A stretch of 64,000 nt of DNA from an uncultured Nitrososphaerota archaeon. Lineage in GTDB: Archaea; Thermoproteota; Nitrososphaeria; Nitrososphaerales; Gagatemarchaeaceae. The stretch is taken from positions 64,001 through 128,000 of the forward strand of contig CAVRAG010000004.1 of the NCBI GenBank assembly GCA_963718895.1. Direction: 5' to 3'. This document shows positions 17,581 through 37,504 of the stretch, piece by piece (the stretch's first letter is position 1; every line of letters begins with the position of its first letter). The translations under genes and the position numbers were made by a program. Below the pieces are notes generated by a model. That model was given only the letters and a program-made list of their open reading frames with translations, was not told the DNA's origin and made no database searches.

Positions 17581-17599
17581 CTACATACCGAAGTATAGG
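17581..17599 (-). repeat. possible degenerate glnA-3' att copy (reads LYFGM*)
   Basis: ctacataccgaagtatagg matches 36041-36059 at 16/19; also folds as a C(UUCG)G hairpin. Confidence 0.45.
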
Positions 17600-17726
17600 G
17601 TTGTCAACTGACACAACTAGCTTCTCTGTACGAACGACAACCCATATTTCGTTGGCGAACAGGGCGTTCCAAGGCTTGAGCGCACCCGACAAGCTCCACT
17701 GACGCCGATACCGGAGTGCTAGACAG

Positions 17727-18338
17727 GTGGTAATCACCCGGGATCGGAGCTCTGCCAAGGCGGCGACCGCTCAGGGCTTGCTCGCAATCGAGGCCCCCAC
17801 GACGAGGTCCTTCGAGGCCCTCAACAAGGTGAGGGTGGATAGGGCGTCGACCCTGATTTGCTGCCTCGACGACGATGCAGACAACCTCCTTGTGGCCATG
17901 AACGCGAGGAAGCTGAATAGTGACCTGAGAATACTTATGGTCGTCAACGACAGGGAGATTGCGGAGTCAGCGGCTGCCTCCGACATCGACGTCGTGATAC
18001 CGCTCATGGACGTGACGGCCAGGGCACTCGCGTTCTCCGCCGTGGCTGAGGAGGTCGTAGGAATCCTCCTCCCGGACGCGAAGGAAGCTGAGGTCCTGCG
18101 GAAGGTGCCGTATGTGTTGGAGTTCTCCATCGACCAGGAAGGAGGCGCTGGGGCGACCTTCGGCGCCCTTGACAAGGTCTCCCCCATCCTGATGGTCGTA
18201 AGGGACGGCAGGTCAATTCCCAACCCTGCGGATGATTTTCAATTCGCGAGGGGAGACTCGATGCTAGTTCTCGGAGGCTCGCCCTCGTCGATACAGAGTT
18301 TCAAGCAGGCGCTCTCGTCGGCGGAAAGCAAAGCCTGA
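17727..18338 (+). pseudogene. N-terminally truncated TrkA-N/TrkA-C (K+ channel RCK) protein
   Basis: DDDADNLLVAMNARKLN and PNPADDFQFARGD; lacks the GxGxxG start and any channel domain. Confidence 0.65.
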
Positions 18339-18349
18339 GTTGCGGTGCA

Positions 18350-18659
18350 GAACGTCTTTCGCAGATCTCGACTTCGGACCGAATGAGCCCTTCTTCGCAC
18401 CCTTGATTCTGTCATCGACGAACGCGATCTGTCCCTGCAAGAGTCCCTTGGAGCCGTTAAGCACCTCGGTTGCTCGCGGCTCGTCCTCTTCTCGACCGAC
18501 TTCACCGCGTTCGATGGTGCCTGCCCGGCTTCGTCGAACGATTGGTCCAAAGCGTGCTCGACCTTCGGGGTTCTCTTGGAGAGTCCGTCTGCAGCGACTT
18601 TTTTCTGCTCTCGATGAACTCCTCCGCACTCTTGACGGTGTCTCTTACGCAGCACTCAT
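18350..18659 (-). pseudogene. degenerate small helical protein
   Basis: Coding-like pieces in several frames (TVKSAEEFIE / PKVEHALDQSFDEAG / GLLQGQIAFVDDRIK). Confidence 0.3.
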
Positions 18660-18892
18660 ACCAAGTTGGACCGTTTCTGTTTAACGAGTTCTACCCATCT
18701 CAACGACTCCGCTGCCAGGGCAGTCTATGACAGATTGCGTCCGTGGGCAAAGGATGCAACGAGACTGGTCCGCCTTTCAGGAGGGAAGTGCCGAGATGGC
18801 TGGACGGCTCTGGTGCCGCTGTGGGTGCGTACTCGCTTCGCCCTCAAGTCGCAGTACTCATCTTCAAGTCCCTTCGACCTAGCAGGTCGCTT

Positions 18893-20866
18893 TCAGGAGG
18901 TCGCCTGCCGGTCTGGGTTCTTCTTGCTCCGCCTTATTCCTACGACCAGGACCGCCGCGACCAGCCCGAGACCCGCAATCCCCGCGGGCCCCGCTTTGGA
19001 ATAAACCGAGGTGGCCAGGTGCTCGGCGACGCTCACGAAGTCACTCAGGGAGGCGACGACCGGCTGCACATACCGGTCCACCACATGGATTCCATCAGAG
19101 AGCGAGGCGGCCGCTGGCGCAATGTACTGGTCAATCGCCTTGACCGCGTCAGAGAGCGTCGCGACAGCCGGAGCGACATAGGTGTCACCTACATGAACGG
19201 AGTCGGTCAGGGGGGCGTTCACCGGGGTCGTGATTGCGGCTCCAGCATTCACACTATCTTGAAGGGCGGCGGTCACTGTCGCGCCCTGGGGATAGACGGT
19301 GAGCGTGAAGACACCCGCGCACGGCGATGAAAGGGTTGGGAAGCACGACACCCCGCTCTCCAGAAACGCCTCTCCGACGATTATCGAGTAGACCCCTGGC
19401 GGAACAGAGGCTGCTACCGTCATCGTAGCTACGTAGGACCCGGACGGCGGGGAGCCGGACTCCACGAAGGGCACGAATGATAACGAAATCCCCTCTACAT
19501 TAGGAGAGACCGCGTAGGCGTAGACGAGATATGAGGGGGCATCTCCGAGGATTGTCGCGGTCACTGCGACAGGCAGGACGGTGCTGACTCCTGCAGGGAG
19601 AGACCCCGCCGCGGGCGTCAGGGAGACCGACTCCACGACGTCTGAACTCGGCTCGACGATGAGCTGGTAGGTGGGGCGGACGCAGATGCCGGAGCAGTCC
19701 GTTCCCGCTTGCATAAGCGCGTCATCCGCTGTGATCGTGTAGATTCCGGCTGGGGCTGCTGGTGTCACGTTGACGGTCATCGTGAAGTAAACGTAGAACG
19801 GAGGTCCCGGCTCATATCCAGGGAAGAAGGAGATGGAGATGCCCGCCGGGTCTCCACTTATGGTGGCCGAGGGATTCTCCCTGTCGGGAGAGTTCCCGGT
19901 GATTGTGGGGATCGAGCGTCGAGTATAGGTTCCCGCCGATGCCTCCGGTGACCGAGCCCGAGGGTCGCGGTAAGGGTCAGGCTCGTCACTACGTCGCCAG
20001 GCTGAGGAGGTGGCGCGGTGGTGGAGGTGGAACTCGACGTGGTGGATGTTACCTGAGTGCTCGTAGTCGAGGTAGTCGAGGTAGTCGTTGATGTTGTTGA
20101 GGAAGTCGAGCCTGAAGGTGCGAGCGCTAGTCCCATTTCTATCCAGGGGTAGGCGCTCGAAAGCAAGGTAAAGGGAAAGTCTGTCGGCGAGGACACACCG
20201 CTCGTGGCGTATTCGGCGTTACCCCCATCCATACCACCGCTTGACCCGGGAGAAAGGGCAAAGTTAGCACCTGCAGTCGTAGAAATCACGCTCTGACGGG
20301 TATAGTCAGTACCTGCAACCAAACTAACAAGGAAAGCACCGCTCTGAAATGATGCGGATTCTGTAGATGCGGGGCATGGAGGGCTGTAACAATCACCGCC
20401 TGCGGCTTTATAGACAGCCCCGACAGTAGTAACTCCAGATACTTCGTAGATGTAGACCCCACCTTGTGTGGCACCGGCGAAGGTCACGAAGATAGAATCT
20501 GATCCACTCGAAGAAAGCGTCGCATGATAGAAGAATACGTCAATGGGACTATCGGACCCTTCTGCCACAAGCGTGAATGTTGATCCAAATGTGTCGCCAA
20601 CTGAACCTACCGTACCAGAATAAACTGCGATCGCGACTACAACCACATCTCCCGCCGCTACTGAACTTGGGAACGAAATCGGGGATGGAGAGCAAGATGT
20701 GGTCGCGCAGCCACCGTTGTTCTGCTGGACCAGGGAGGAGTCCGCCCTGGCCAGAGGGACACTTGCCTAGCACAGAGACGAGAAAGATCAAAAAGACCGC
20801 CAGGACCGCGAGTGCGATTGGCCGGAGACCCATGGGTCTTCGCAGCACAGTCGAGCGTGTCATCAT
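18893..20866 (-). CDS. large secreted, C-terminally anchored surface protein with Ig-like domains and 18-aa LxD repeats (frameshifted)
   Basis: Signal peptide (20549-20866 ORF), 19858-20646 ORF and 18893-19780 ORF join across shifts near 20760, 19965 and 19910; Ser/Thr linker; C-terminal TM plus RRSKK. Confidence 0.7.
19007..19276 (-). repeat. five tandem 18-aa (54-nt) repeats
   Basis: VTAALQDSVNAGAAITTP / VNAPLTDSVHVGDTYVAP / AVATLSDAVKAIDQYIAP / AAASLSDGIHVVDRYVQP / VVASLSDFVSVAEHLATS. Confidence 0.8.
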
Positions 20867-21015
20867 GTCGTCTCCGACTTGTCTAGAGGGAAAAGAAACG
20901 TTATCACGCGGTTGATTGTGTCGACGAACGGCTCCGCCGAGTATCCTAGGACTCGGGCCATCGCGAGCAAACTGCTACAGGAGAGTCCAAGCCAGCCCGT
21001 CTCACTCAACTCATC

Positions 21016-21858
21016 TCAAGACACAGTGAACTGGATAGTGACGAGCAGCGAATCCCCGTTCGCCACCAGGATTGGCGTTGCATTGAGATTGAGATAGTCG
21101 AACCCCTCCGTGTGGCCGTAGATTGTCAGTTGCGACAAGGTGCCTGCGTCTACCTCCAACACCCCGCATGGAGTTTGAGAGAGCGTGTAGATGCAGTTTG
21201 TGGGCGTGAAGGTGGTCGGACCGAAGGTCGCCTCCGTTATCCAGCCGGTGCACAAGGGAGGTATCGGGGAGCCAGTGCTGGCGTTCGGGCCACAGCCCAG
21301 CGGCGTGAGGGTGTTCGTCGCGCTGATTTCGGCCTGGCAGCCTGTCTCGGTATACTGGTATTCGTTCTCGGCTCCCGCGTTATCGGCGCAGGTTCCGCCT
21401 TGCTGCGTCACATCCGCCGGCCCGAAAACGATAGCGACGGCATTGACGAAAGAAGAGCAGGAGCCGCCCGAACCAGTGATTGACCCGGGTCCTATCGGAT
21501 CGGTGCTGCCGCCGTCCGACCCGGGGATACAGGCAGCCAGAGCATTCGTGCCTGCGGCGGTGAGAGGATCTGGTCCGGACCACTGGGATACCAAGCTCCC
21601 ATCAGGCGAAAGCACCTTGATGGTTTCGATTCCAGAAATCGACAGGCCTTGGTCCTCGCTCCCCTTACTAGAGACATTCTGATTGAAGACGTTTGCCAGG
21701 ACCGTGGACCCAAGCAGGATACCGATAGCTATACTTCCGACAATAACGAGAGAGATTTTTGTCCTCGACGAAAGTTGCAATGGATTGTAATTGGAAGTGG
21801 TCACCCGTTCTATAAAAGCCTTTGAAAAACTCCTGCTCGTTAGGGCAAGCTTCGACAT
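21016..21858 (-). CDS. secreted Cys-paired beta-rich protein
   Basis: N-terminal TM/signal; GIETIKVLSPDG...C-terminal VANGDSLLVTIQFTVS; 8 Cys. Confidence 0.7.
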   Translation of the reverse strand: MSKLALTSRSFSKAFIERVTTSNYNPLQLSSRTKISLVIVGSIAIGILLGSTVLANVFNQNVSSKGSEDQGLSISGIETIKVLSPDGSLVSQWSGPDPLTAAGTNALAACIPGSDGGSTDPIGPGSITGSGGSCSSFVNAVAIVFGPADVTQQGGTCADNAGAENEYQYTETGCQAEISATNTLTPLGCGPNASTGSPIPPLCTGWITEATFGPTTFTPTNCIYTLSQTPCGVLEVDAGTLSQLTIYGHTEGFDYLNLNATPILVANGDSLLVTIQFTVS

Positions 21859-21869
21859 ACCGTGCGAAC

Positions 21870-22185
21870 GACGTCAGCTCTTCCTGCACCGACGGCGCGA
21901 ATTCGTCGGCCTCTCTCGTAACCAGAGTGTTGCCTCCCGACCTCATGACCTCCTCGTCGAGCTTGCCCATCCCCGTGAGTTGGAGCAGGTCGAACTCGCG
22001 CGTTAAGGTCACGACCTAGGCCTATGGGCTCCTGAGGACCTCATCGGCGCGACGCTCTTTTGTCGAGCCCCCAAGCCCCACTCTCCGGAGGAAGTCCTGT
22101 GCGGACTATGTCACTTCCTCCTGGTTCTTCTGCCTCCACTGGAACGCCTCGGGACTCGTTTCCTTGAACTCTGGTCTAGCAATAC
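21870..22185 (-). pseudogene. remnant of a second tyrosine integrase
   Basis: FKETSPEAFQWRQKNQEEVT*SAQDFLRRVGLGGSTK aligns with the N-terminus MKVLNRKAYEWRRDHRDEVVSQLKIYLEKVGRRGSRK of the 34712-36005 integrase. Confidence 0.6.
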
Positions 22186-22225
22186 TACCAGGCCAGCGTA
22201 TGAAAACACATATGAACCAAGAGGT

Positions 22226-22240
22226 TCAGATATCGAAGTA
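22226..22240 (-). repeat. glnA-3' att copy (TAC TTC GAT ATC TGA = YFDI*)
   Basis: 13 contiguous nt identical to the glnA end; stop codon TGA instead of TAG. Confidence 0.65.
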
Positions 22241-22539
22241 TCCGTGGCGGTTAGCCACTGCATCTAATTTCATGCTACCTTTCCCACAGAAGTGGACTCA
22301 CCAGAAAGATTTGGTCCAGAAGAGATTCATCCGGATATCCGTATCGAGCCTGTCTTTGGCGTGAACAGATTCCATCGAGATAATCATGAGGTTGAACCGG
22401 CTATTCGTGCGTCACGAATCAGTGTACTGGCCTGATTGGCGCTCCCACCCGGAAGGGCAGATATCGCGACGTGGAGTAGGCCTAAGCGAAAACATTGTAA
22501 CCTATTCTGTTGTTCCAATCTGTCACTTAGATTCGACGT

Positions 22540-23121
22540 TCAATGAATGCGCTTTGATCTTGCCAGCAGGTAGACTATCACGCAGCTGATAATGACAGCG
22601 ATGGCGGTCCCTATCACCGAATCATGAAAAGCACCGGTGGGAAGCAATGACAATGTGCCTGCGGCTCCATCTGACAGGAGACTGTACACGATTGTGATGC
22701 TGTTGATACCGAGCAGCCAATTGCGCGGAAGGTCCTTCTTGGCCAGGGTGAGGAACCCTACGGACAGGCCGGTCAAGCCTACCAGAAGGTGACCAGCGCC
22801 AAAGACTGAGCCCGCAGCGTTAACGGCGAAAATGACGTAGGCGGTTCCTCCGAAAGTCACCAGCGAACCCACGACAAACTGGAAGAACAGGATCAACCGC
22901 CTCATACCTATCGTCACATACTCCTCCTGTCTCGATGACCCTATGTCACCCCCGGAGCCAGATTGGGAAGGTCCCGTTCCCGAAGTGGTCCCCAAGCGGC
23001 GAACAATGTGTAACACGACCGCGCAAAGGAGGGAAAGCGAAGCCAAGACTCCAGAGGTCTTCGACAGGATCTTGTCCGCCGCGTCCGCTGTCGCCGACGA
23101 GAGGAGGGATGGGCCTCTCAA
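22540..23121 (-). CDS. hypothetical membrane protein
   Basis: Four C-terminal TM segments; start coupled to the upstream stop; alternative start at 22905. Confidence 0.55.
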   Translation of the reverse strand: MRGPSLLSSATADAADKILSKTSGVLASLSLLCAVVLHIVRRLGTTSGTGPSQSGSGGDIGSSRQEEYVTIGMRRLILFFQFVVGSLVTFGGTAYVIFAVNAAGSVFGAGHLLVGLTGLSVGFLTLAKKDLPRNWLLGINSITIVYSLLSDGAAGTLSLLPTGAFHDSVIGTAIAVIISCVIVYLLARSKRIH

Positions 23122-23511
23122 GGTATCCTCTCCTTCGGTAAGTCAGAGGCCGTCTGGTTCCATCTCACGGCCATGAATGTCCCTGCAATGGTCATGCCAT
23201 AGATTCCAAAAGCGACAAGGAGATGGACCCAAGCGAGCAGGTCGCTCCCTGTACTGAGGGTCGCGAATCCGAGGACGATTTGCACAAGGATCGAACGCGA
23301 CAAGGCCGACAGACAACATCCTGAGCAGTCTGAATGCCGGTCGGACCATCCAGGCCACGACCAGCGTGGCTATCGCAAGGAGAAAGACGAGAAAGCCGAC
23401 TGCTATGTGAGGCGCTGCAGGAATGAAATCGAAAGTGAGCAGCCCTCCGAGCGCGAGCTGGGCGAAGACCACAATTCCTGTGATGCGGAAGAGAAGCTGG
23501 CCTGTCCTCAC
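23118..23511 (-). CDS. four-TM membrane protein with His in TM segments (frameshifted)
   Basis: VFAQLALGG...PHIAVG joins LVQIVLGF...WVHLLVAF across a shift near 23300. Confidence 0.55.
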
Positions 23512-23975
23512 CGTGAAGCCCCCCTTGACGTCCCCCCGGGCGGCTCCGCAGCTCCCGCAGCTTCTGCTATCTTCTTGAGAGCGTTCTCTGTCGCTTTCGC
23601 TATCTGGTTCTTCACGATACCCTCGACGAACCCAGGCAGGCCGTTCAAGGTCAAGTCCCAGGTAACCTCGATTCTGGTCTGCCTGTCCCCTGTCGGAACG
23701 ACTAGAATGGTCCTCTCGCCTTTGATCTGGTCGCCCTCGAGTGACAGCTTGATTGTTCTCTTCTCGGGATCGAGGACGAGCCTCTGCCTTGTCCTCTGCG
23801 CAAAGGCCCTCGGTCCCACAGTGGCCTCCCGTTCGACCGTCGTGCCTTCGGTCTTGAGGACTCTCACGTCTCTGATGTTTCCCCAAAAGTCCCCCTCCCT
23901 TCGCCAGTCGACCAGAATCTGCCAGACCGTGCCGATGTCTGCTCGAGCTTCTTGAGTCGTGGTTATGATTACCAT
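23508..23975 (-). CDS. SRPBCC/polyketide cyclase family protein
   Basis: VWQILVDW...TRIEVTWDLT...ATENALKKIA. Confidence 0.8.
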   Translation of the reverse strand: MVIITTTQEARADIGTVWQILVDWRREGDFWGNIRDVRVLKTEGTTVEREATVGPRAFAQRTRQRLVLDPEKRTIKLSLEGDQIKGERTILVVPTGDRQTRIEVTWDLTLNGLPGFVEGIVKNQIAKATENALKKIAEAAGAAEPPGGTSRGASR

Positions 23976-23986
23976 CCCGCTCTTAC

Positions 23987-24892
23987 CTACCCTGTTTTGG
24001 CCTGGGGTCGGTCGGATATGCTTGGTGTTACTGGCGGGGTAACAGCCGGCCTGGAGAAAGAGATCCCACCCAGCCGTCCGCCGTCTATTGGAACGACCGC
24101 GCCGGTGACGAACGAAGAGAGCTCGGAGCACAGCCAGACGACAACTTCGGCCACCTCCTCTCTGTTCCCTACGCGACCCAAGGGAACCGCAAACATGGCC
24201 TGATTCGGGGTTATCATCCCAGCCGTCCGTTCCGTCAGGATTGGACCCGGCGCGACCGCGTTGACTCTAATGTTCAGCTTCGCATAGTCCATGGCTGCCG
24301 CCTTCGTGAGCCCGATCACCGCATGCTTTCCGGCGACATACCCGGCGATGCCGTTCACACCCTGAAGGCCTGCGGTCGAAGACATGTTCACTATGGAACC
24401 ACCTCCCGTCTTCAGCATCGCTGGAATCTCGTACTTCATGCTCAAGAAGGTCCCCCCAGCATTCACCTTCAGTGCTTGGTCGAACTGCTCGACGTCAAGC
24501 TCGGCAAGGGGAGATGGCACGTGACCGCCGCCCGCGTTGTTGAACGCCGCGTCGAGTCGCCCGAACGTCCCCAGGGTGACGCTCACCAAGTTCTGCACTG
24601 ACCGAGGGTCGGTGACGTCGGTGGGCACGGAGAGAGAGTAGTCGCTTGAGGCGCATTCGTCCACGATTGACCGCCTCACTTCGTTCAGAGCGTCTTCATC
24701 TCTGGCGGCTAGCACGACCTTCGCTCCGGCCTTCGCGAATGCAGCTGCCGTTGCGGCCCCGATGCCGCGGCTCGCACCCGTCACTATCGCGACCTTGTCC
24801 TGAAGAAGCCCTTCGATGTTGCGAGGGAGCTTGAGTGGAGGAAGGACACCCTGTTCGCCCTGCACTTCCGCTGGGGTCGTTTGCAAATCCAC
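23987..24892 (-). CDS. short-chain dehydrogenase/reductase
   Basis: TGASRGIG, NNAG, YVAGK, NAVAPG. Confidence 0.93.
   Translation of the reverse strand: MDLQTTPAEVQGEQGVLPPLKLPRNIEGLLQDKVAIVTGASRGIGAATAAAFAKAGAKVVLAARDEDALNEVRRSIVDECASSDYSLSVPTDVTDPRSVQNLVSVTLGTFGRLDAAFNNAGGGHVPSPLAELDVEQFDQALKVNAGGTFLSMKYEIPAMLKTGGGSIVNMSSTAGLQGVNGIAGYVAGKHAVIGLTKAAAMDYAKLNIRVNAVAPGPILTERTAGMITPNQAMFAVPLGRVGNREEVAEVVVWLCSELSSFVTGAVVPIDGGRLGGISFSRPAVTPPVTPSISDRPQAKTG
24024..24046. promoter_or_regulatory. TGTTAC-N7-GTAACA operator copy inside the SDR 3' end
   Basis: ggtgttactggcggggtaacagc; arms identical to 25329-25351. Confidence 0.55.
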
Positions 24893-24898
24893 CCTCTC

Positions 24899-25287
24899 CT
24901 AACTCTGTGGGCGCTCCAGCTCCTTCCTCATCTCTTCGAATTGCTGCTGTGTGATCTCGCCCCTCGCGTACCTCTGCCTGAGCGTCTCGAGGGCCGGGTC
25001 ACTGGCCCCGCCATAGTACCAGCCTCCCCTCCCCCACCACCAGCCGCCCCAGAAGTACCAGCGCACGGCGAAGAAGACCAGGAAGAAGACCGGGATGATG
25101 AAGAAGAACCAGGGGACGGGAGACCACCAGAACCAGGGGTAGGTCGCACCGGTGGCAGAAGGAGCGGAGGGGACTCCTATGTACAGCTCAACACCTACGA
25201 ATGTCGCTATCAGGCCCACTGCAGCGAGCAGCGGTACGAACACCCATCTGCGCGATGAATGGGGCTTTGTTTCTTGATACGTTCCAT
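24899..25287 (-). CDS. SHOCT-domain membrane protein
   Basis: ALETLRQRYARGEITQQQFEEM; two TM; 5' end possibly frameshifted. Confidence 0.8.
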
Positions 25288-25328
25288 TTCACCTGTCGAG
25301 CATCGAATTCCCAAAATCTAATATCTGT

Positions 25329-25351
25329 GGTGTTACCCTGGCGGTAACAGC
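25329..25351. promoter_or_regulatory. TGTTAC-N7-GTAACA operator in the divergent SHOCT/TrmB promoter
   Basis: ggtgttaccctggcggtaacagc palindrome. Confidence 0.6.
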
Positions 25352-25360
25352 GAAGTAAGC

Positions 25361-26182: not shown

Positions 26183-26297
26183 ACAGGCCCTAGAAGCCGC
26201 GGATGTCTGGCAGCGCCTGAGGAGAGGAGGCCTGTGATAGCACGGTCACCGGCGTCTATCACTGCGAGAACTATCGGTTCCCGAGTTCTACTCATAT

Positions 26298-29027: not shown

Positions 29028-29144
29028 ACCCCATCGTATTCCCCATATACGCGCCACCCAAGCCAGCGCAATTGTAAATTATATTGAACGACCGCCACGG
29101 GAGTCGGGGCGTATCCTGGTATGGACAATTTAGAGTGTTCGCCG

Positions 29145-29163
29145 ATGTACAAAATTTGTGCAT
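29145..29163. promoter_or_regulatory. palindromic operator between the ABC genes and the membrane/wHTH genes
   Basis: ATGTACAAA-a-TTTGTGCAT (one mismatch). Confidence 0.45.
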
Positions 29164-29202
29164 TGACAGCCTCGTGGCCGAAGTGATGAGGGTCCTGAGA
29201 AG

Positions 29203-29881
29203 ATGATTGAGGACTCGGCCATCACGCCCGAAGAGGTCAGGGCCGTCGGGCAAAAGGTGCTCGCAATAGAACGGGTAGTCCTCAGGAGGGCGTGGGGATT
29301 GGCCTACGCCATCACCGCTGCGGAGTTGCTCCTGAGGCTTGTCCTCCCTGTCTCGAGCTATGAGCTCGGCCTCTCGGCCGTTGTCAGCATCACCGGGAAC
29401 ATTGTCTTCCAAACCATGATTGCGCTCGCCGGGTTCGCAGTCTGGATATGGATCTTCAGGCGCGTCTATGTTCTGAGATTCGTCAGAAGGTCAATCCTGG
29501 GTTCGTTCTGGACTTGGGGCTTGAGACCCATCCCCGCGCTGTTGGTCTTCGCGCGTAGCATACGCCGGGTTGATTGCGGCGCTCACGTTCCTTCCTTCGA
29601 ACTTCGCGACCATCCTGTTCGGGCTCGCTGCCGCGCAGACACCGCTGTTCTACTACTCCCTGAAAATCTCATTCCCAGAAGGCCTGCCGCGTGAAGGCGT
29701 GGCCGCGCTCCTTGCCTTTGGTGGTGCAGCGATCGCTACCGTCTTCGTGACCATCTCTCCGCTCGTGAGTAACTTCATCCCCTATCTGGCTCTCTGGGGA
29801 TTCGCCTCCATAGTCCTTCTTCTTGCCTTTCTGTACACTCGTTCGGTGAGACTTCCCGAACCTCCGAAGGAGACCCCCTGA
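29203..29881 (+). CDS. membrane protein (frameshifted near 29555)
   Basis: LRRAWGLAY N-part plus hydrophobic 29570-29881 C-part. Confidence 0.6.
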
Positions 29882-29882
29882 A

Positions 29883-30230
29883 TTGGTGAACAAGAAGGAG
29901 GAACCCGGTGACCCCCAGAGCATCAAACGGACGACCATGGACCTGCTCAACGAGCAGTTGGGTGACCCGTCTCTTAGATCCTCCACTAGGATATTGATCT
30001 TGATGCTGCTCTCAGTCCACAAGAAGATGGGCTTTGTCGAGCTGCTGCGCTTCACAGGTCTGGGAAGGAGCAGCCTTGGAAATCACTTGAGCAAACTCGA
30101 AGCGGCAGGATACGTCAGGACTAGAATGGTCAAATCGTTCCTCGGCAGGAGACAGGTAATCGAGATAACACAGAAAGGCCTTGAAGAATGCCGGACGTTA
30201 CTGCAAAGGATTCAGAGCATCGATGTCTAG
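29883..30230 (+). CDS. winged-HTH transcriptional regulator
   Basis: SSLGNHLSKLEAAGYV...ITQKG. Confidence 0.85.
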   Translation: MVNKKEEPGDPQSIKRTTMDLLNEQLGDPSLRSSTRILILMLLSVHKKMGFVELLRFTGLGRSSLGNHLSKLEAAGYVRTRMVKSFLGRRQVIEITQKGLEECRTLLQRIQSIDV

Positions 30231-30364
30231 ACCCCGCGTCAGACCACCCGAGATTGTTCTTGGACACAATTTCAGGATTCAGATTCCCGTCGGGTCCGCC
30301 TCCGTTCGGGTCCGTACGAAGAAAGAGTTATAATCCTATTTGTTCAATAGGATTTCGGGTTCAC

Positions 30365-30619
30365 TTGAAAGCAAAGGTGGCAAGGCGGTACCAGATTACG
30401 ATTCCCGAGGAGGTAAGGGAGGAAGTGGGGATCAATGTGGGTGACCTCGTCGATGTTACGAGCCACGGAGGAAGGGTTGTGATTGAAAAGGTCGGAGGGA
30501 ACTGGGACGAAGTAATGAGGGAGACCAAGGGCGCTTGGAAATCTCATCCTGCTTTTGCTGATATGAAGGACTCGGTTGAGATAACCCATTGGCTCAGAAA
30601 TCCGCGCATGAAAAGATGA
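30365..30619 (+). CDS. vapB: AbrB/MazE-type antitoxin
   Basis: KVARRYQITIPEEVREEVGINVGD. Confidence 0.85.
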   Translation: MKAKVARRYQITIPEEVREEVGINVGDLVDVTSHGGRVVIEKVGGNWDEVMRETKGAWKSHPAFADMKDSVEITHWLRNPRMKR

Positions 30620-31053
30620 CGACGCTGTCGCTGGACACCAGCGTCCTTATCAGTCATTTGCGTGGAGACAAGTTCGCTGAAGAGACCGATTCATTCCTGC
30701 GAAGAGCCATCCAGAGCAAGACACAGCTGGTCATCCCGGACGTAGTCTACGCGGAACTTTACACCGGAATCTTTCTGGCCTCGGACCCTAAGGCCGAAGA
30801 GGCCAAGGTTCAAAACTTCCTCGGAATCAACAACATAGAAGTCAGGACCTCCAGGTCGTTGAAAATCGTCAAGAGAGCAGGTGAGCTCTATTCGAAGAAG
30901 CTGAGAGGACAAGGCGGAGTTCAGAGGATTCTTCCCGATTTCCTGATTGCAGCTCAAGCAGAGGCGACCTCGGAGGGATTCGTTACGTGGAACAGGGAGG
31001 ACTACGAGGGTCTCGGGTTACGGATTCGCGTCCTCCGACCAAACGAAGCGTAG
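30616..31053 (+). CDS. vapC: PIN-domain VapC toxin
   Basis: LDTSVLI, VYAEL, DFLIAAQA, TWNREDY; ATGA overlap. Confidence 0.88.
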   Translation: MTTLSLDTSVLISHLRGDKFAEETDSFLRRAIQSKTQLVIPDVVYAELYTGIFLASDPKAEEAKVQNFLGINNIEVRTSRSLKIVKRAGELYSKKLRGQGGVQRILPDFLIAAQAEATSEGFVTWNREDYEGLGLRIRVLRPNEA

Positions 31054-31725
31054 TTTCTTTTGCGAGTATTGTCCCATCGGAGGCGTGGAGGACGGTGCGT
31101 TAGCCCGTGATCGTGTTGCCATCCTGGTTCACGGAGTTCACCATTTCGCCTAAGTGTCGCAAGCGTCTGTCCAAGTCTCACCAGCCTCGCCACCCATTGC
31201 TAGCAAAATCAATCCTCAGATCACAAGAACTACGAGAGAAGATTCCATTACTGAGTCTTGATGAACGGGACGGCTTTGTCGAAGAGTTCCTGAAGCTTTG
31301 GACTATCAACGGCCACCCAGACGACCCTATCGTTTCTGTCAATCTTCCGCCGACGCTCACGATCAGGGTCCCAGTATCCTGTCATCTATTCATCACCAAG
31401 CTGACGGAAGGAGGGGATGTGCAACGGCGCAGGCGGAGAGGCTCTCTCGAAGGAAGACATGGGCTCTCGAGTTCATTCGGCTCTCCTCGACCTCAAAAGC
31501 TGCAGCCAGACACTAGTCTTCCCACGAGATTGGTGGCTGGAATCTCGTCTCGTTCTCTCTCGAGCACTTCCTTAGGGCGAGTGTCGTGAGATTTCGGCCG
31601 CCCATACGTCGAGGCCGCGGAGCTGACCCCGCGTGCATGAGGCTCAGCTTCCAGCTTAACCCTACCTACCATATCGGTAGGATGTAGCGGTAGAGTTATA
31701 AGCATTCCTACTATGTAGGTAGGTG

Positions 31726-32424
31726 ATGGCAGATGTCACTGTGAAGGTGGCCACGCTGGAGCTGCTCGAGAGAGAGCCGAAGCGCTATTCTGACCTGGTC
31801 AGAGAACTGGGAAGGCCCGACAAGACGGTCTACGTCACTCTGGCAGCCCTCTCCGACTCGAAGTACATCTCCAAGGACGGTGAGGGTCGGTACATCATTA
31901 CGGACACCGGAAGGCGCGAGCTTGAGAGAGCAAGATTCGTCAGACTCGCCGAGGAGGAGGACGACCTCGGGATCATCCTGAACACGAAGATGGCGATTGC
32001 GTTGGGGAGGTGCTATGACCTGTTGCTGGACCTCCGCTACATCCTCTCCAGGACCCTGACGAAATCGCATCCGGAAGAGAGGAGGGAGGTCAAGGAGAAG
32101 CTGGTCGTGATTCGAAACCTTCTGCTCAAGTACAACCCGTCGCTCAAGCGGGAAGATCTCGAAAGCAACGAATCCAAGGGAACGGAGATCGGCATCAAGG
32201 ACCTCCTGAGCGGAGGGATACTGTGGGAGAAGAGGTTCATAAAATGGGGCCTCAAGGACCGATATCTGCACCTCGTAAGCCTGGCAAAAGAGTTGCCGGA
32301 AGGTCCTGTCAAAGAAGAGATACTCGGCTCCCTTGATCTGTTCAGGGAAGTCGCCGGAAGGGTGGACGGCAGCCTGAAGGGCCTGGAGGCTCCCTCACAA
32401 TCTCCTGAAAGTCCTAACCCTTGA
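31726..32424 (+). CDS. winged-HTH protein with unknown C-terminal domain
   Basis: RYSDLVREL...YIITDTG; CTACC/GGTAG palindromes upstream. Confidence 0.65.
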   Translation: MADVTVKVATLELLEREPKRYSDLVRELGRPDKTVYVTLAALSDSKYISKDGEGRYIITDTGRRELERARFVRLAEEEDDLGIILNTKMAIALGRCYDLLLDLRYILSRTLTKSHPEERREVKEKLVVIRNLLLKYNPSLKREDLESNESKGTEIGIKDLLSGGILWEKRFIKWGLKDRYLHLVSLAKELPEGPVKEEILGSLDLFREVAGRVDGSLKGLEAPSQSPESPNP

Positions 32425-32506
32425 TGCTAGACTGCTCCATGTCGAGCATCTCCTCTGCCTCCTGCAGATAATTCTTGTAGAGCTTCTCATCGACCGGCTT
32501 TGCCAT
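32414..32506 (-). pseudogene. truncated HEPN toxin N-terminus
   Basis: MAKPVDEKLYKNYLQEAEEMLDM, then ends; overlaps the MNT stop. Confidence 0.5.
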
Positions 32507-33110
32507 TCTTGACCATCTCCTTCAGGTCTCTTCTGCGCACGAGGATATAGCGTTCAAGAATCGACTTTTCAAGGTCGATGTCGTGGTCTCGACGGAACTT
32601 TTTCTCGCCCAGAATCAACGGAGACAGCGCATGACCAAATCGAGAAACCGTGGTGTCCATGGCCCTGGCCGCGCATTCAGTTGCAAATTCTCGGTCATCT
32701 GAGATGATCAGGAGGTCGACGTCGCTGGCCTCTCCCTCGTCGCCCCTGGCCACGCTTCCGAAAATGGCCGCCGAGATTATCCTCGGGTCATCGAAGAAGG
32801 GTGCGATTGCCGAGACTAGGGAGGCCACGGTGTCCTTCTCTGCGGTGAATAGTGGTTCTATCAGAGAGTTCACGGCGTAGCTCTCTTTGTTCAGGCTCAC
32901 CTGGTATGCCTTGCCCACGGGCTGGAGCCTCACCACGCCCCTCCTCTCCAGCTCCTTCAGCACCGACGATGCCTGCGGATGGGAGACACCGGCAGCCGCG
33001 GAGAGCTCCCTGACAGTGAAGACCTTGCCCTCATAGCGCGCCAACGTCCTGAGGAGGCGGATGCTCGTCTTGCTCCCGAGGATATCGGCGGCGTATTCGT
33101 GGAGTGCCAC
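32487..33110 (-). CDS. wHTH-MNT minimal nucleotidyltransferase antitoxin
   Basis: N-terminal wHTH; FGSVARGDEGEASDVDLL. Confidence 0.85.
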   Translation of the reverse strand: MALHEYAADILGSKTSIRLLRTLARYEGKVFTVRELSAAAGVSHPQASSVLKELERRGVVRLQPVGKAYQVSLNKESYAVNSLIEPLFTAEKDTVASLVSAIAPFFDDPRIISAAIFGSVARGDEGEASDVDLLIISDDREFATECAARAMDTTVSRFGHALSPLILGEKKFRRDHDIDLEKSILERYILVRRRDLKEMVKNGKAGR

Positions 33111-33228
33111 GTGGGTGCTATCCACAAGTGGTAGAAATACTTTCCATATGGTAGATACACATACCATCTCCGGGCCCGAATGCCGCGCATCGAAAAGCGA
33201 GATTGTAGGAGGGGACCACACTCGTGGG

Positions 33229-33663
33229 TCATTTCATGTTAAGAAGCTCTAGAGTCTTGCTGACGAACTTCTCTGCGTACTGAACCAGATTTCGACCCTG
33301 TGTTTCGGAGATTGAGCCTGCGCGGTCGTAGAGCGACTCGTTCCTGCGCCTTCTGGCCTTTTCGAAGGCCTGTAGGACCTCGGCGTCAAACTTGTTTGCG
33401 TAGACCGCCTGAACGAAGGAGATTACCGCTGTGTGGTGCTCTTGGCTCCTCGGCCTGTACCCCTTCGAGAACATGAGCGCCCTGCCCGCTTGGAGCATCG
33501 AGTTGTAGGCTGCATTGTGAGCCCATCCCCACTCCTGTATCCCCAGCATATGCTTCGCTGAGGCGAGGTCGTTCTTCGCGATTTCGGCCTCGTTCCTTAC
33601 CTGATCCTCATCAGACTGGTACTTCTCAACCAGTCCGTTTTTCAATAACTCGCTTAAACTCAT
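33229..33663 (-). CDS. HEPN domain protein
   Basis: AYNSMLQAGRALM, SQEHH, RRRRNESLY (Rx4Y-type). Confidence 0.85.
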   Translation of the reverse strand: MSLSELLKNGLVEKYQSDEDQVRNEAEIAKNDLASAKHMLGIQEWGWAHNAAYNSMLQAGRALMFSKGYRPRSQEHHTAVISFVQAVYANKFDAEVLQAFEKARRRRNESLYDRAGSISETQGRNLVQYAEKFVSKTLELLNMK

Positions 33664-34622
33664 TCTCTTCGCCTATTACCATCATCACCGGTGTCTTCCC
33701 TATCTCGCGTATCAGCGGAATCTGGTCTCGAACCTTCTCTCCAAGCTCCCCGTCGGTCCACAGATTGTAGTTCACTTCCCGCCCCGTTCTCCTCTCCACC
33801 TCGTTCACGGCTTTCAAAAGCTTGTCCTCCGCTATATCCCCCACCACAAGCAGGTCGATGTCGCTCTTCTCGCCCTCCACCCCTTTCCAAACGATCCGTA
33901 GATGACCGCGTTCTTGACCTGTTCAGCCCCAAGTTTGCTCGCAAGCAACTCATCCAGGAACTCGTACTTCAGGAATATCCTCTTCAGCTCATCGTATATC
34001 ACACTCTTTTTGTTGATGACGTACAGTGACTATTTGCCCTTGATGCTCTTCTTCATCAGCTCAGATTGAGCAGAAGCTGCACTCCTTTGACGTGCGGATG
34101 CTGCATACCTGCCTTCCTCGCAATATCGTTGAGATGAAACGCCGAGCTGGAATTGAGGAAGAGGAGCTTGAGGATGAGAATCTGGCCACGCGACCTGAAC
34201 GGCCTTTCGAGCGAACTCCTCAAGACCACTTCGCGGACTTTCGGCTTCTCGTGGAGGATTACTTCTCTCACCGACGCCAGAGCCTCTCCGCGCTCAGGTT
34301 TCACAGCTTCCGCGACCCCTCCGTTGATCAGCAGCAGCCCAATGCCAAGGTTCCTACAGGCGGTCAAGAGTTCTCGATCTTCTCTCTCCTTAGGCAAGGC
34401 GAGGTAGGCGATATTTGCTGCGTGCTTGTAGTGAAGCGTTTGTTCGAGGCCGAGCCTCGGGTCACCGAGGCTTCCTTTGACCTCGACGACGGCAATCTCT
34501 CCGCCCCTGACTGCTACGATGTCGGCTATCCTGCCCCTGAGCTTGACTTCTCTTGAGACCTTCCATCCAGCGGCTGACAAGTAATCGGCCACCTTCGAGG
34601 CGATCACAGGCTCCGATGGCAT
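33626..34622 (-). CDS. PD-(D/E)XK nuclease-wHTH-MNT fusion (frameshifted)
   Basis: REV...ADIVA...VEVK...Q..HY nuclease; FHLNDIARKAG wHTH; YGSFGKG/EKSDIDLLVVG MNT, joined across several shifts at 33880-34100. Confidence 0.65.
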
Positions 34623-34711
34623 AATAAAAGCCGTATTTTTCATAAACGAATAATCATTCTCCAAATAGAAACGGGAGTATTAATAAACTTGCCTGCTAGG
34701 TTTGGGGTGAG

Positions 34712-36005
34712 TCAGAAGGGTAGCTTGACGACAACCTCGGAGTCAGGGAGTTGAGCGATGTACTCCCATCCCTGACTGATGTGGGTCTTCAGCTCGCTCA
34801 TGGGAATCACCTTCTGCTTGTGCCCGTTGTTCGCCATGGCTCCAAGAAGCTTCTCCCGCACCATCTTCTGGAAGTCCTCGTCCTTGATGCTCGAGAGATC
34901 GAGCTTGTCGACCTCCTCCTCGCTGTACCCGGCGACCTGCATCAGGATCTCCCTCCTGAAGGACTCCTTGATCTCGTCCTGGCTCATCCCCCGCTTCCGC
35001 AGCATTATCGTGACCGCGTCCATCCCCTTGAGATAGAACTCCCTCATCTGGTCCTCTGTGTATCGTCGGTACGCAGAGTCCAGGAAGAGCTTGTGCCCCA
35101 TGAGCGCCTCGGCGATGTCCCTTCCCAGCGGCTGCAGCATCTGCGTGAAGAAGAACTTCCTCAGACAGTGGATGTGGATGGTATCCCTCCCGTGGTCATC
35201 CTTCATCGGCCAGCCCGGCAGTTCTTCAGCGCCAGCGAGAAGATGTGGTCAGCGTTCCAGTAGGACATCGGAAGGTTGCCGGTCTTGTGCTCCTGTCCGC
35301 GGGTCGAAGTCTGGAAGATGTAGTCGTCCGGATTGTTGACCCGTTCGCTGGAGGAAATCCTTCAGGAACGTGACCGCCTCGTCGCTGATGAAGCAATACC
35401 TCGCCTGCCTGTCCTTGGTCACCTCTGCCCTCAGGCGTACCGTCGCCGGATTCTTGGACAGGTCGATGTCCTTCACCCTGAGAGTCAGGAACTCTCCGAC
35501 CCTCATCCCGCTCGACGCAAGCATCGTGACAAGGGCCTTTCCGCGCGAATCCGTGTGCATGAGGACGCTCCTGAGCTCTTCCGGTGTCGGCACCCTGTCT
35601 GCGGTGACGGCGTGATACCTGGGAGGTCCACCTTGACCCTCATCTTGGCGTTGTCTAGCTCGAAGTCGTTGATGGCGAGGAACTTCTTCACGGCCGAGAG
35701 ACGGTTCCTGAGAGAGTTGGGAGCGAACTTGTCCTTGAGCATCCAGGCCACGTATCCGTCGAGGACCTTGTAGACGTCGTTCTTCCTCATGTAGTGCCAG
35801 GGCATCGTTCGGCAGCATCTCGAGGTAGCTGCAAAAGTCCATCATCCCTCCCAGTGGCATTCTCGACACTCTTCCTGGAGCCGCGCCTCCCCACCTTCTC
35901 CAGGTAGATCTTCAGCTGCGAGACAACCTCGTCTCGATGATCCCTCCTCCACTCGTACGCCTTCCTGTTTAGGACCTTCATGCAGGGCGGGAGGTTGCGT
36001 CCCAA
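34712..36005 (-). CDS. tyrosine recombinase/integrase (about 6 frameshifts; catalytic residues intact)
   Basis: SGMRVGE, TKD, HCLRKFF, LMGH, AYRR spread over four ORF-track pieces and one short linker piece. Confidence 0.85.
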
Positions 36006-36027
36006 CCCGCATTTAAGCCTTGACAGG

Positions 36028-36043
36028 TAGCAGTTAACTGCTA
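36028..36043. promoter_or_regulatory. perfect 16-bp palindrome overlapping the glnA stop
   Basis: TAGCAGTTAACTGCTA. Confidence 0.5.
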
Positions 36044-37504
36044 GATATCGAAGTAGAGGTAGAACTCGTACGGGTGAGGCCTCGCGGAGACCGCCCTGTA
36101 GTTGGCCATCTCGAGCTCGATCATCATCTCGATGAGGTCGTCCGAGAAGACGCCCTTGAGGAACTCCGAGTCGGACTTGAGGGACTCGATCGCCTCGAGG
36201 AGGCTACCGGGGAGCTCCTTGACCCCGAGCTCCTTCCTCTTCTTCGGTGTGAGCTCGTAGATGTCCTGGTTGACCGGGTCTCCGGGGTCGAGCTTGTGCT
36301 TTATCCCGTCCAGGCCGGCCGAGACGATGGCCGCGAACGCAAGGTACGGGTTCGAGGATGGGTCGGGCGTCCTGAACTCGGCCCTCTTGCCCTTCATGCC
36401 GGACTTGCCCTTGTAGTGGAGCGGAATCCTCACGTTGGCCGACCTGTTACCTCTGGACCACGCGACGTAGACGGGCGCTTCGTAGCCCGGGACCAGTCTC
36501 CTGTATGAGTTCGTGGTGGGGTTTGTTATGGCGCACAGGGCCCTGCTGTGGGCCAGGAGCCCTCCCACATAGTACCTCCCGGTCTGGCTGAGGTTGGCGT
36601 AGTCGTCCTTCTCGTCGTAGAAGGCGTTCTTGTCGTCCTTCCAGAGACTCGAGGAGACGTGCATGCCAGAAGCGTTGTCGCCGAAGATCGGCTTCGGCAT
36701 TATCGTGGCGATCATCCCCCTGTTCGATGCCACGTTCTTCACCACATACTTGTAGGTCACGATACTGTCTGCCATCGGCGTTAGGGTGTCCCTGTAGATG
36801 TTGATCTCGCACTGCCCCGCCGTCGCGACCTCGTGGTGGTGCGCGTCGTTGACGATGCCGAAAGACTCGTCGAGCGTGTAGGCCACCTCGCTCCTGTAGT
36901 CCTGCAGCGTGTCTGAAGGAGGCGTGGGGTAGTATCCTTCCTTGAACCTGATAGGATAGTTCGTTCCACGGGCCTCGTTGGCTGACTCGACGGACGTGAT
37001 CCTGTGGCTCGTCCCGAACGGGCTCGAGACGTCCCAGGTGACAGAGTCAAAGACGAAGAACTCCATCTCGGGCCCCCAGTACGACTCGGTGAAACCCGCC
37101 GACTTGACGGCCACCTCGGCCTTCTGGGCGATGTATCGGGGGTCCCTTGAGAACCTTCCCTTCTGGTAGCCCCAGTGGACGTCGCAGATCATCCTCGCCG
37201 TCGGAAAGCGCTGGTCGCCCCACGGGATTATCCCGAACGTCGAGGGGTCCGGGAGCAGAAGCATGTCGGAATCAAAAATCTCGGCGAAGCCCTTGATCGA
37301 AGAGCCGTCCAGCTTTGGGACTCCTCCCTCGAAGGCATCCTCATCGAGCATGTTGTTCGGGATTGTGACATGCTGTGTGCGACCCGGGACGTCCGTGAAC
37401 TGCAGGTCGATGAACCGTATTCCCTTTGACGCTACAGCGTCTATGATTTGTTTCGGTGTCCGCTTTCTCGGAACATAGCCTTTTGCCGACTTGTCGAAAG
37501 GCAT
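36041..37504 (-). CDS. glnA: glutamine synthetase type I
   Basis: DGSSIKGF, HHHEVATAGQCEI, PKPIFGDNASGMH, SYRRLVPGYEAP, EFRTPDP. Confidence 0.98.
   Translation of the reverse strand: MPFDKSAKGYVPRKRTPKQIIDAVASKGIRFIDLQFTDVPGRTQHVTIPNNMLDEDAFEGGVPKLDGSSIKGFAEIFDSDMLLLPDPSTFGIIPWGDQRFPTARMICDVHWGYQKGRFSRDPRYIAQKAEVAVKSAGFTESYWGPEMEFFVFDSVTWDVSSPFGTSHRITSVESANEARGTNYPIRFKEGYYPTPPSDTLQDYRSEVAYTLDESFGIVNDAHHHEVATAGQCEINIYRDTLTPMADSIVTYKYVVKNVASNRGMIATIMPKPIFGDNASGMHVSSSLWKDDKNAFYDEKDDYANLSQTGRYYVGGLLAHSRALCAITNPTTNSYRRLVPGYEAPVYVAWSRGNRSANVRIPLHYKGKSGMKGKRAEFRTPDPSSNPYLAFAAIVSAGLDGIKHKLDPGDPVNQDIYELTPKKRKELGVKELPGSLLEAIESLKSDSEFLKGVFSDDLIEMMIELEMANYRAVSARPHPYEFYLYFDI

Follow-up and report, generated by a model that had tools for sequence, protein, structure and literature searches.

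The window, a 64,000-nucleotide stretch of one contig of an uncultured Nitrososphaerota archaeon from soil, contains an intact glnA gene for a type I glutamine synthetase, followed downstream by a row of direct, co-oriented copies of its own 3' end (Table 1). The preliminary description of this DNA had reported a 19/20 repeat of the glnA end at 27100, an 11-nt core at 26298, a 13-nt copy at 22226 and a 16/19 match at 17581. These copies were recovered: the 20-mer has just two matches in the window at up to three mismatches, where 0.01 are expected, the 11 nt (26301-26311) and 13 nt (22228-22240) match the glnA end exactly, and the copy at 17581 agrees at 16 of 19 positions, or 16 of 20 across the full 20-mer. 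The two best copies had been said to differ from glnA only synonymously, and indeed 27100 reads YFDI and stop with GAC and TAG, while 22226 reads YFDI and stop with TGA. The copy at 17581 reads FGM and stop, and that at 26298 has lost its stop codon. All copies are intergenic relative to credible genes, as had been stated.

Table 1 Features of the glnA locus (window positions)
Feature	Position	Strand	Evidence
glnA, type I glutamine synthetase, intact, target gene	36041-37504	-	TIGR00653, 565 bits (cut-off 429 bits); 487-aa ORF
Proximal att core (attR): stop codon and last 5-6 glnA codons	36041-36060	+	site model, repeat search
Element-side arm (P arm) by glnA	36018-36040	+	minus-strand site-model match 36006-36043, E 2.8e-4
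Tyrosine integrase pseudogene, six single-base indels	34712-35981	-	PF00589, frame reading, alignment
Proximal element cargo	27120-34664		Pfam; parts common to relatives' integrase elements
att core copy 2, 19/20, reads ..YFDI and stop	27100-27119	+	repeat search, position matrix, site model
0.8-kb module: PIN toxin gene and small upstream antitoxin-like gene only	26328-26982	-	Pfam PIN
att core copy 3, exact 11-mer 26301-26311, weak	26298-26317	+	site model E 1.4
4.1-kb module	22246-26297		Pfam
att core copy 4, exact 13-mer 22228-22240, with ~25-nt arm	22226-22268	+	site model E 4.4e-4
4.6-kb module	17601-22225		Pfam, homology searches
Distal-most att core copy, weak, 16/20	17581-17600	+	genome rank 7; site model E 1.5
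tRNA-Ile 3'-end copy, 25 nt at 92% to a gene on contig C8	17506-17541	-	similarity

The 11-mer core occurs three times in the 3.13-Mb genome, always on one strand (+) and within 14 kb downstream of glnA. The 13-mer occurs twice when both strands of the 3.13 Mb are searched, both times on the + strand of the glnA locus, and sites with exactly four mismatches to the 20-mer number only eight genome-wide. A position matrix, built solely from nine distal copies in relatives and scanned over ~6.3 million positions, ranked 27100 first, 36041 second, 22226 sixth and 17581 seventh. The matrix and exact-word scans thus answer the question of background frequency raised in the preliminary description by showing that the motif is essentially unique to the glnA locus. 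A site model of 105 positions, made from ten junctions of relatives and run over the window with filters off, gave its best match at 27074-27142 (E 1.5e-8), with further matches at the proximal junction (36024-36099, E 5.8e-8) and at 22225-22268 (E 4.4e-4). By this model the copies at 26298 and 17581 are weak, because their matches (E 1.4 at 26282-26312 and 1.5 at 17581-17600) stand barely above noise. The repeats are genuine and beyond chance.

The copies at 27100-27119 and 36041-36060, the latter overlapping the glnA end, flank a proximal element of 8.9 kb as direct repeats (19/20). It is the sole unit of the window that retains an integrase. By Pfam, its cargo comprises a Hjc/PD-(D/E)XK-like nuclease, a HEPN protein, two nucleotidyltransferase genes, two wHTH proteins, a MazE-like antitoxin with a PIN toxin, and a membrane protein; an ABC part consists of an ATPase with one frameshift and an ABC-2 permease.

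The integrase starts at 35981, 61 nt from the glnA stop. Compared with five intact orthologs, it carries indels at 35853, 35795, ~35623, 35349, 35219 and 35205, and this copy has no intact reading frame; contigs from other populations show the other state at four of these six places. The integrase fragment matched PF00589 with 41.6 bits, above the curated cut-off, and the six-frame match in the window reached 48.7 bits with one internal stop, while the intact ortholog P0001 scored 68 bits, aligning to positions 5-169 of the 172-position profile. The distant PDB relatives of the integrase are archaeal XerA/XerC-like proteins. In relatives the integrated orthologs form unbroken 421-aa ORFs adjoining glnA, with the core outside the ORF, and by eye they contain the HCLRK and C-terminal Tyr motif, the putative catalytic residues. 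The window integrase cannot be active, and there is therefore no sign of current mobility in this genome.

The outer units (26318-27099, 22246-26297 and 17601-22225) each lie between core copies and have no PF00589 match. The 4.1-kb module encodes a membrane protein, an SRPBCC protein, a short-chain dehydrogenase, a SHOCT protein and a TrmB regulator, and homologous clusters are present at other loci in relatives. The 4.6-kb module contains a 5'-truncated TrkA-N gene, a frameshifted small gene and three surface or secreted protein genes. An integrase remnant had been proposed for 17600-22225, but none was found there by tblastn or by a six-frame PF00589 search: the intact integrase of the glnA type (E limit 10), a tRNA-type integrase from another genome (G001) and the six-frame genome search all gave no match in 10000-23000. 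A stretch at 18374-18650 with similarity to contig C7, considered as an integrase, is actually a frameshifted small coiled-coil-like gene. The description of the units as complete also had to be abandoned, since TrkA-N at 17727 lacks its 5' part, the small gene at 18239-18655 is frameshifted, and the ABC ATPase and the integrase have one and six frameshifts, respectively. The units within 10100-27100 showed no nucleotide homology to the glnA loci retrieved from relatives, and none of the window genes at 10591-31700 lies within 20 kb of glnA in 16 relatives, generic ABC matches aside. The window array is a decaying fossil and does not represent a functioning platform for cassettes.

Among the outer copies, exact identity is limited to 11-13 nt or the sequence is degenerate, two of them have site-model E values of ~1.4-1.5, and cargo homologs of the 4.1- and 4.6-kb units occupy ordinary chromosomal loci in relatives. 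Site-specific insertion might accordingly be limited to the proximal 8.9-kb element (27100-36060), with the copies at 26298, 22226 and 17581 originating from rearrangement or chance. We consider this improbable, as the 11-mer and 13-mer are found nowhere else in 3.13 Mb, the copies are all co-oriented and intergenic, the same kind of array is explicit in relatives, and the copy at 22226, with a site-model E of 4.4e-4, has a 25-nt arm in common with sites in contig C5 and in two other genomes (G010 and G007).

The junction sites are conserved as units of ~70-86 nt between genomes with unrelated flanking cargo, and by eye a TCGAAGT stretch is invariant across all aligned junctions. The P arm forms a 16-bp palindrome spanning the junction and is kept in all integrase-bearing relatives. 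In the window, the 27100 core has degenerate arms on both sides (27074-27142), the 26298 core is preceded by an inverted arm resembling the glnA end, and the ~25-nt arm at 22226 is common to four sites elsewhere with different cargo. Small units have arms similar to those of the integrase element. Perfect palindromes are present within the junctions of G009 and G017 (fold z of the DNA -6.9 and -8.1), and the junctions of relatives hold two separate palindromes, not one attC-like hairpin. The window sites, with fold z from +0.6 to -2.2, fold no better than shuffled sequences; a weak exception is 22226 (z -2.2).

Such palindromic arms could serve as hairpins behind glnA, in which case the repeats would be host sequences, for example palindromes of the terminator type, or a repeat family spread through the genome that resembles the glnA end by coincidence. 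This is very unlikely, because arm motifs in this genome are confined to the flanks of core copies, the empty site described below has none, and the arms travel with the integrase in hosts whose glnA diverged far more than the integrase: the orthologs are 84-89% identical in amino acids to the window C-terminal fragment, and glnA of those hosts shows just 71-74% identity to the window glnA. Related core-plus-arm sites also occur away from glnA, on contigs C5 and C1 of the same genome and in G007, ~400 kb from its glnA.

Intact integrase orthologs lie directly after glnA in 4 of 16 downstream regions of relatives. In the species-representative genome collection, glnA is just upstream at 7/7 integrase loci, and metagenomes provided 14 further loci, 12 of them with upstream sequence and 11 of these with glnA there, including one whose integrase is only 48% identical. 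An association of homologous integrases with glnA 3' ends, on which the preliminary description had staked its reading, was thus found at 18 of 19 informative loci, with the integrase starting ~61 nt past the stop. Gene content downstream of glnA, expected there to vary, differs in all 16 relatives examined, and occupied glnA sites as well as the empty kind it had called for exist among them. In G012 the site is empty, with core and glnA directly adjoining the flank gene. The orthologous flank of G022 (79% nucleotide identity) ends in a core copy, and 2.33 kb of unrelated sequence separates this copy from an identical 20-mer at glnA; this insert, a surface protein unit, has no integrase and carries an exact 20-bp duplication at its ends. 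In G017, 16 kb separate this flank from glnA.

Across 23 genomes of the genus, the pattern YYARATRTCGAAGT gave 34 matches, compared with 5 for a reversed control. Contigs with multiple copies were found in G009 (5), G010 (3), G017 (3), G022 (2) and G004 (2), besides the window contig (3), and the copies on each such contig are always on one strand. Arrays of two to five co-oriented copies are present in at least six genomes of the genus, and the core is conserved across families of the order. All nine distal copies of relatives keep the stop and the Ile codon at the glnA position, with just the third base of the stop fixed by the search expression. Small units are also seen in relatives: a 1.0-kb DUF4258/DUF2283 pair in G009, two units in G017, one of 1.6 kb with a Na+/H+ exchanger and one of 1.8 kb with VapBC and MBL, and a 1.1-kb luciferase-like monooxygenase unit in G013.

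At the distal end, a tRNA-Ile fragment lies ~40 nt left of the last core and is the remnant of a different, tRNA-targeting element. The outer boundary of the array is uncertain because the distal core abuts this remnant and not clearly native DNA; the region that varies relative to G007 and G010 reaches further, to about 10.2 kb. Default ARAGORN found no tRNA in the window, and Rfam models matched neither 10000-42000 when gathering scores were applied nor 17200-17800 when E values as high as 1 were allowed. A tRNA-Asp with a 64-nt 'intron' over 17581, proposed by permissive ARAGORN, is poor, the real signal being the tRNA-Ile 3' fragment. None of the 11 contigs has terminal overlaps, so that contig C5 is unsupported as an episome.

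Public sequencing runs consist of low-depth contigs, the best run holding just 0.20 of the sampled words, and parts left uncovered carry no meaning. One contig covers 27056-27360 with no differences. Another joins 17576 to 36045 at depth 2, with nine unexplained letters at the joint, and is the sole hint of an empty site for the window's own strain. Joints between neighbouring cores were not listed in these low-depth contigs. A back-joint from 35116 to 24758 was seen in X2 at depth 11.

The repeats, their specificity for this locus, the association of integrase and glnA, the empty and occupied sites and the arrays of relatives support the earlier proposal of glnA as an attB at which elements accumulate in tandem, integrase-less modules included. 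Very probably, the glnA 3' end is the attB of one family of integrative elements, and the window holds a decayed tandem stack of about four insertions. We infer the recombination chemistry, the position of the crossover, the order of insertion and any past mobility of the small units from this arrangement. The chromosomal attachment site would be the final 20 bp of glnA, covering the stop and last codons, and elements of the family would carry a dedicated tyrosine integrase of ~420 aa. The circular element is expected to have its own core between two arms made of a repeated palindromic motif. Recombination would put it directly behind glnA, with the element core providing the last Ile codon and the stop, so that glutamine synthetase would be unchanged. 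Later elements may reuse the core and shift older insertions outward, forming a co-oriented array, which in the window would include the cores at 36041, 27100, 26298, 22226 and probably 17581. The outer units (0.8, 4.1 and 4.6 kb) may be decay remnants or units formerly moved in trans.

Instead of being decayed islands, the small units could constitute a true cassette system, a platform for gene capture like that of integrons, in which non-autonomous circles of one to four genes with one structured ~72-nt site are taken up and released in trans by the glnA-targeting integrase. The very small units of G009, G017, G013 and G022 with complete and well-preserved sites on both sides, the recurrence of one junction site with unrelated cargo and the likeness of small-unit arms to those of the integrase element are consistent with this. 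We nevertheless regard it as rather unlikely. The model of streptococcal CIMEs (cis-mobilizable elements), as set out in PMC5704250, accounts for small units without a new mechanism, because both att sites survive when a larger element loses its interior by deletion, and toxin-antitoxin pairs are expected survivors of decay. Moreover, the window units contain truncated and frameshifted genes, no circular form was observed, and no single unit was present or absent between otherwise identical arrays, the elements of G009 and G017 being mosaics.

The stack at glnA shows that accessory genes turn over rapidly at one hotspot, the glnA 3' end, and extends the list of archaeal integration targets by a protein gene in wide use. 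It defines an integrase and a 20-bp target in a conserved housekeeping gene for archaea with few genetic tools; the integrase is intact in several genomes, and together with the glnA site it could be used for site-specific integration. With a likely integrase named, it becomes testable whether miniature att-flanked units are mobile cassettes or debris. Soil Nitrososphaerota might even possess a gene-capture platform at the glnA end, an independent archaeal analogue of integrons, a tentative idea that we hold to be less probable than its contrary. The integrase would then recognise a ~72-nt site, the glnA-end core between two palindromic arm copies, and toxin-antitoxin pairs, transporters, oxidoreductases and surface proteins would be shuttled into and out of an array as miniature integrase-less cassettes.

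Accretion of this kind is already familiar; glnA as its target is apparently unreported, as we found no report of it as an archaeal integration target in literature searches or in the main texts of PMC6563490 and PMC8371274, the words 'glutamine' and 'glnA' having 0 occurrences in the former. Among cryptic integrated elements of thaumarchaea, that survey places 14 of 68 in protein genes (Krupovic et al. 2019, PMC6563490). As portrayed in its main text, these elements resemble the glnA elements in phylum, tyrosine integrase and short att repeats, in insertion at the 3' end of protein genes with the frame rebuilt by element DNA, and in having relatives with empty sites and a single site used repeatedly in tandem. 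The glnA locus likewise has an integrase at one end by att, flanking direct repeats and an empty site in a relative. The surveyed elements, however, are defined by their integrase, and rows of small integrase-less units or palindromic arms are apparently not described for them. SSV-type 'suicidal' integrases differ in that att is part of the integrase gene and integration splits this gene, whereas the glnA-type ORF stays unbroken with its core outside.

The preliminary description had likened the array to integron or pdif cassettes, a likeness that did not hold for either the enzyme or the arrangement of sites. Integrons share with it small units, each with one or a few genes, arranged in a row, structured and partly palindromic sites and a tyrosine recombinase gene. 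However, attC sites are single-strand hairpins, whereas the window sites are copies of the end of a host gene without an attC-like single-strand fold; integron cassettes are promoterless and in the same orientation, whereas the glnA units have their own regulators and genes on both strands; and the platform is attI with a promoter, here the end of a metabolic gene. The integron-integrase model TIGR02249 scored the glnA-locus integrase at 42.9 bits, far below its cut-off of 265. The pdif modules of Acinetobacter plasmids are small, are flanked by Xer sites as inverted pairs and use the host XerC/XerD, having no recombinase of their own. Small modules without a recombinase between short recombinase sites are common to both systems, but pdif combines inverted sites with host enzymes, and the glnA array combines direct copies with an element-borne enzyme that is not a XerA ortholog (76.6 bits, cut-off 220).

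Finally, streptococcal CIMEs arise where elements integrate at gene ends, decay while keeping attL and attR without an integrase, and are joined by a new element entering the gene-end att (PMC5704250). As outlined in that source, they are bacterial, linked to conjugation and dependent on other integrases and targets, and no transfer machinery is seen at the glnA array; their accretion gives co-oriented arrays, as here. The outer units of the window similarly keep att copies without integration genes, in tandem with an integrase element of the same specificity. CIME-like accretion and decay would thus be the closest model for the integrase-less modules of the window, and a simpler one than integrons or pdif.

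The 3' end of glnA is a real integration hotspot, well supported and served by an integrase family of its own. We matched glnA in 34 of the 41 genomes searched, the window's own counted among the 41, and compared up to 20 kb downstream of it in 16 of the 33 matching relatives, picked for their long contigs; in many short-read assemblies the contig breaks off where glnA ends or close by. An intact integrase ortholog lies immediately behind glnA in four of these 16 regions. The intact orthologs of G017 and G009, for example, have 421 aa. In those four hosts the C-terminal fragment of the ortholog is 84-89% identical to that of the window, while glnA reaches merely 71-74%, and the closest relatives (glnA 91-97%) lack an integrase at glnA, which indicates that the element moves horizontally. 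A collection of species-representative genomes gave the same arrangement, glnA ending ~61 nt before the integrase start at all seven integrase loci. Among 14 metagenome loci, two begin within the integrase, and 11 of the other 12 have glnA upstream, one with an integrase of just 48% identity; in the twelfth, the core (the last 20 nt of glnA) is flanked by two element arms, the palindromic motifs on the element side. According to the database records, the genomes carrying integrase loci are Nitrososphaerota.

The gene, its terminal core, the junctions and the units between them are listed in the table below.

Features of the glnA locus in the window and matches to the junction model
Feature	Position	Strand	Description
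glnA	36041-37504	minus	Intact type I glutamine synthetase
glnA-end core, proximal	36041-36060	read on plus	Last 20 nt of glnA
Junction-model match	27074-27142	plus	E 1.5e-8
Junction-model match	36024-36099	plus	E 5.8e-8
Junction-model match	22225-22268	plus	E 4.4e-4
Junction-model matches	26282-26312 and 17581-17600	plus	E only 1.4-1.5
Proximal unit	27120-36040		Tyrosine integrase, Hjc-like nuclease, HEPN and nucleotidyltransferase genes, two wHTH proteins, MazE-like antitoxin with PIN toxin, ABC transporter
Second unit	left of 27100 core		PIN toxin and small partner gene, nothing else
Third unit			TrmB regulator, SHOCT, short-chain dehydrogenase, SRPBCC, membrane proteins
Fourth unit			TrkA-N fragment and surface proteins

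The preliminary description had placed copies of the glnA end at 27100, 26298, 22226 and 17581. The stretch 27100-27119 repeats the terminal 20 nt with one mismatch, and at up to three mismatches the window matches only at 36041 and 27100, against 0.01 expected. Across the window's own genome, a metagenome-assembled genome of 3.13 Mb in 11 contigs (80.5% complete), the 13-mer common to the glnA end and 22228-22240 occurs twice, and the 11-mer common to it and 26301-26311 has three occurrences, each on the plus strand and at this locus. The 17581 copy has four mismatches in 20, a level found at only eight sites genome-wide. To avoid circularity, we trained a position matrix on nine distal core copies from relatives, leaving out the window sites. 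Its seven best matches in the own genome were, in order, window 27100, window 36041, two sites on contig C5, one on contig C8, window 22226 and window 17581. A junction model of 105 positions, built from ten whole junctions of relatives and run across the window without filters, returned the five proposed sites as its top distinct plus-strand matches. Given their E values, the copies at 27100, 36041 and 22226 are certain; those at 26298 and 17581, for which position and the uniqueness of the k-mers are the main evidence, are weak.

Alignment of the junctions in relatives G009 and G017 revealed a core between two copies of a ~24-nt palindromic arm, and these junctions fold far better than shuffled sequences (z -6.9 and -8.1). 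The junction units, of 68-86 nt, are 86-93% identical across genomes, and the adjoining cargo is unrelated. A second arm type, beside the 22226 core, recurs at two sites on C5 and in relatives G010 and G007, and here too the cargo differs. Arm motifs in the own genome occur beside cores only. Those of the window are degenerate and without notable fold, which fits a dead integrase.

Relatives provided an empty site as well as occupied ones. The G012 site is empty: the gene flanking it downstream directly adjoins the core and glnA. The orthologous flank of G022 (79% nucleotide identity) terminates in a core copy; between this copy and the identical 20-mer at glnA lie 2.33 kb of unrelated DNA, which encode one surface protein with NHL repeats. 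In G017 this flank is found 16 kb from glnA, beyond four core copies. Mismatch and regular-expression searches first detected additional core copies in six of the 16 regions; the matrix listing for these six was trained on those very sites and is a listing, not an independent test. A degenerate 14-letter core pattern, searched in 23 genomes of the genus, gave 34 matches versus five for its reversed control, and in every multi-copy contig the copies share one strand. The stop and Ile codon are kept in glnA register in all nine distal copies of relatives, as expected if each had once closed glnA.

Relatives also hold integrase-less units that measure 1.0-3.1 kb and carry one to three genes: a DUF4258/DUF2283 pair, VapBC with an MBL-fold gene, a Na+/H+ exchanger, a luciferase-like monooxygenase, a Zn-dehydrogenase with a TetR-like regulator, or an ABC transporter. 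Their rows look like a cassette array (the preliminary description had likened the array in the window to those of integrons and pdif modules), and mobilisation of such cassettes in trans is a live but minority explanation, since internal deletion of larger elements, which leaves both att sites (the CIME model, PMC5704250), suffices, and neither a clean single-unit polymorphism nor a circular form of these units was found.

Judged from its genes, the array in the window is a decaying, fossil one. Its integrase carries six single-base indels relative to five intact orthologs, none at a long homopolymer. Low-depth public contigs from other populations have the alternative state at four of the six places, and at 35795 those of one public run match the window. 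The ABC ATPase has one frameshift, the TrkA-N gene lacks its 5' part and the small gene at 18239-18655 is frameshifted. Three sequence searches across 10000-23000 found no integrase remnant, including the one that the preliminary description placed at 17600-22225.

The outer (left) boundary of the array is uncertain because a copy of a tRNA-Ile 3' end (17506-17541, minus strand; 25 nt, 92% to the gene on C8, which adjoins an integrase paralog) lies ~40 nt left of the 17581 core. Compared with G007 and G010, the window is variable further leftward, to ~10.2 kb. Part of the tRNA-Ile copy recurs as an exact 17-nt repeat 3.1 kb leftward, at 14399-14415; the two bracket an NHL-repeat protein gene (14887-16170), possibly as the remnant of a tRNA-Ile-targeting element. 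The copy at 17506-17541 has its counterpart in G001, where this tRNA-Ile-end sequence adjoins a different integrase at the end of a contig. One public contig of depth 2 connects 17576 with 36045 through nine additional letters, the appearance expected of an array-free variant, and is too weak to count. Peat metagenome contigs of public run X2 contain a back-joint from 35116 to 24758 (six letters between, depth 11), which may come from another organism's related genes.

Similar sites were observed elsewhere. C5 (25 kb, with no terminal overlap) carries two core-plus-arm sites 2.3 kb apart on the same strand, C5:15580-15599 and C5:17853-17895, the latter preceded by an inverted glnA-end-like arm as in an attP-like junction, together with a distant integrase and arsenic-resistance-like genes; they may represent either another such array or the glnA array as it exists in a variant strain. 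A glnA-end-like core and arm with similar left flanks occurs at a conserved locus away from glnA in the own genome (C1:8132-8151, minus strand) and in G007 (L068, 11777), there at a distance of ~400 kb from glnA. Homologs of the surface-protein genes in the window lie 2.2 kb from this G007 site. In low-GC G034, from another family of the order, a ~52-nt glnA 3'-end duplication 1 kb downstream (L046, 11816 and 12797) suggests, from the repeat, that glnA is targeted beyond this genus, with a longer repeat. Paired glnA-end copies separated by only 170 bp, each with an element arm behind it (L052, 3759/3929, with a run of N between; G004:C34:1633/1803), may reflect two variants mixed during scaffolding, or else a unit of minimal size.

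The own genome encodes further integrase paralogs (C7:~482000-483100; C8:~627700-629000, ~986400-987500 and ~1191000-1193700; C9; C11), 24-34% identical to the glnA type. At least three of them have a tRNA gene as neighbour, tRNA-Ile (C8) or tRNA-Pro (C9, C11), and the genome thus holds tRNA-targeting relatives of the glnA-targeting enzyme. Profile scoring rejected the latter as an integron integrase and as a XerA ortholog; the self-splitting SSV type was also rejected.

glnA as an archaeal integration target was unreported in the papers found by our literature search, and is not named in the main text, supplementary table aside, of the survey of thaumarchaeal elements by Krupovic et al. (2019, PMC6563490). 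That text places 14 of 68 elements within 3'-distal parts of protein genes, and describes short att sites, stop codons that the DNA of the element restores, and sites reused in tandem; a review (PMC8371274) also notes tandem integration and loss of the integrase. The array in the window belongs to this known kind of element insertion.
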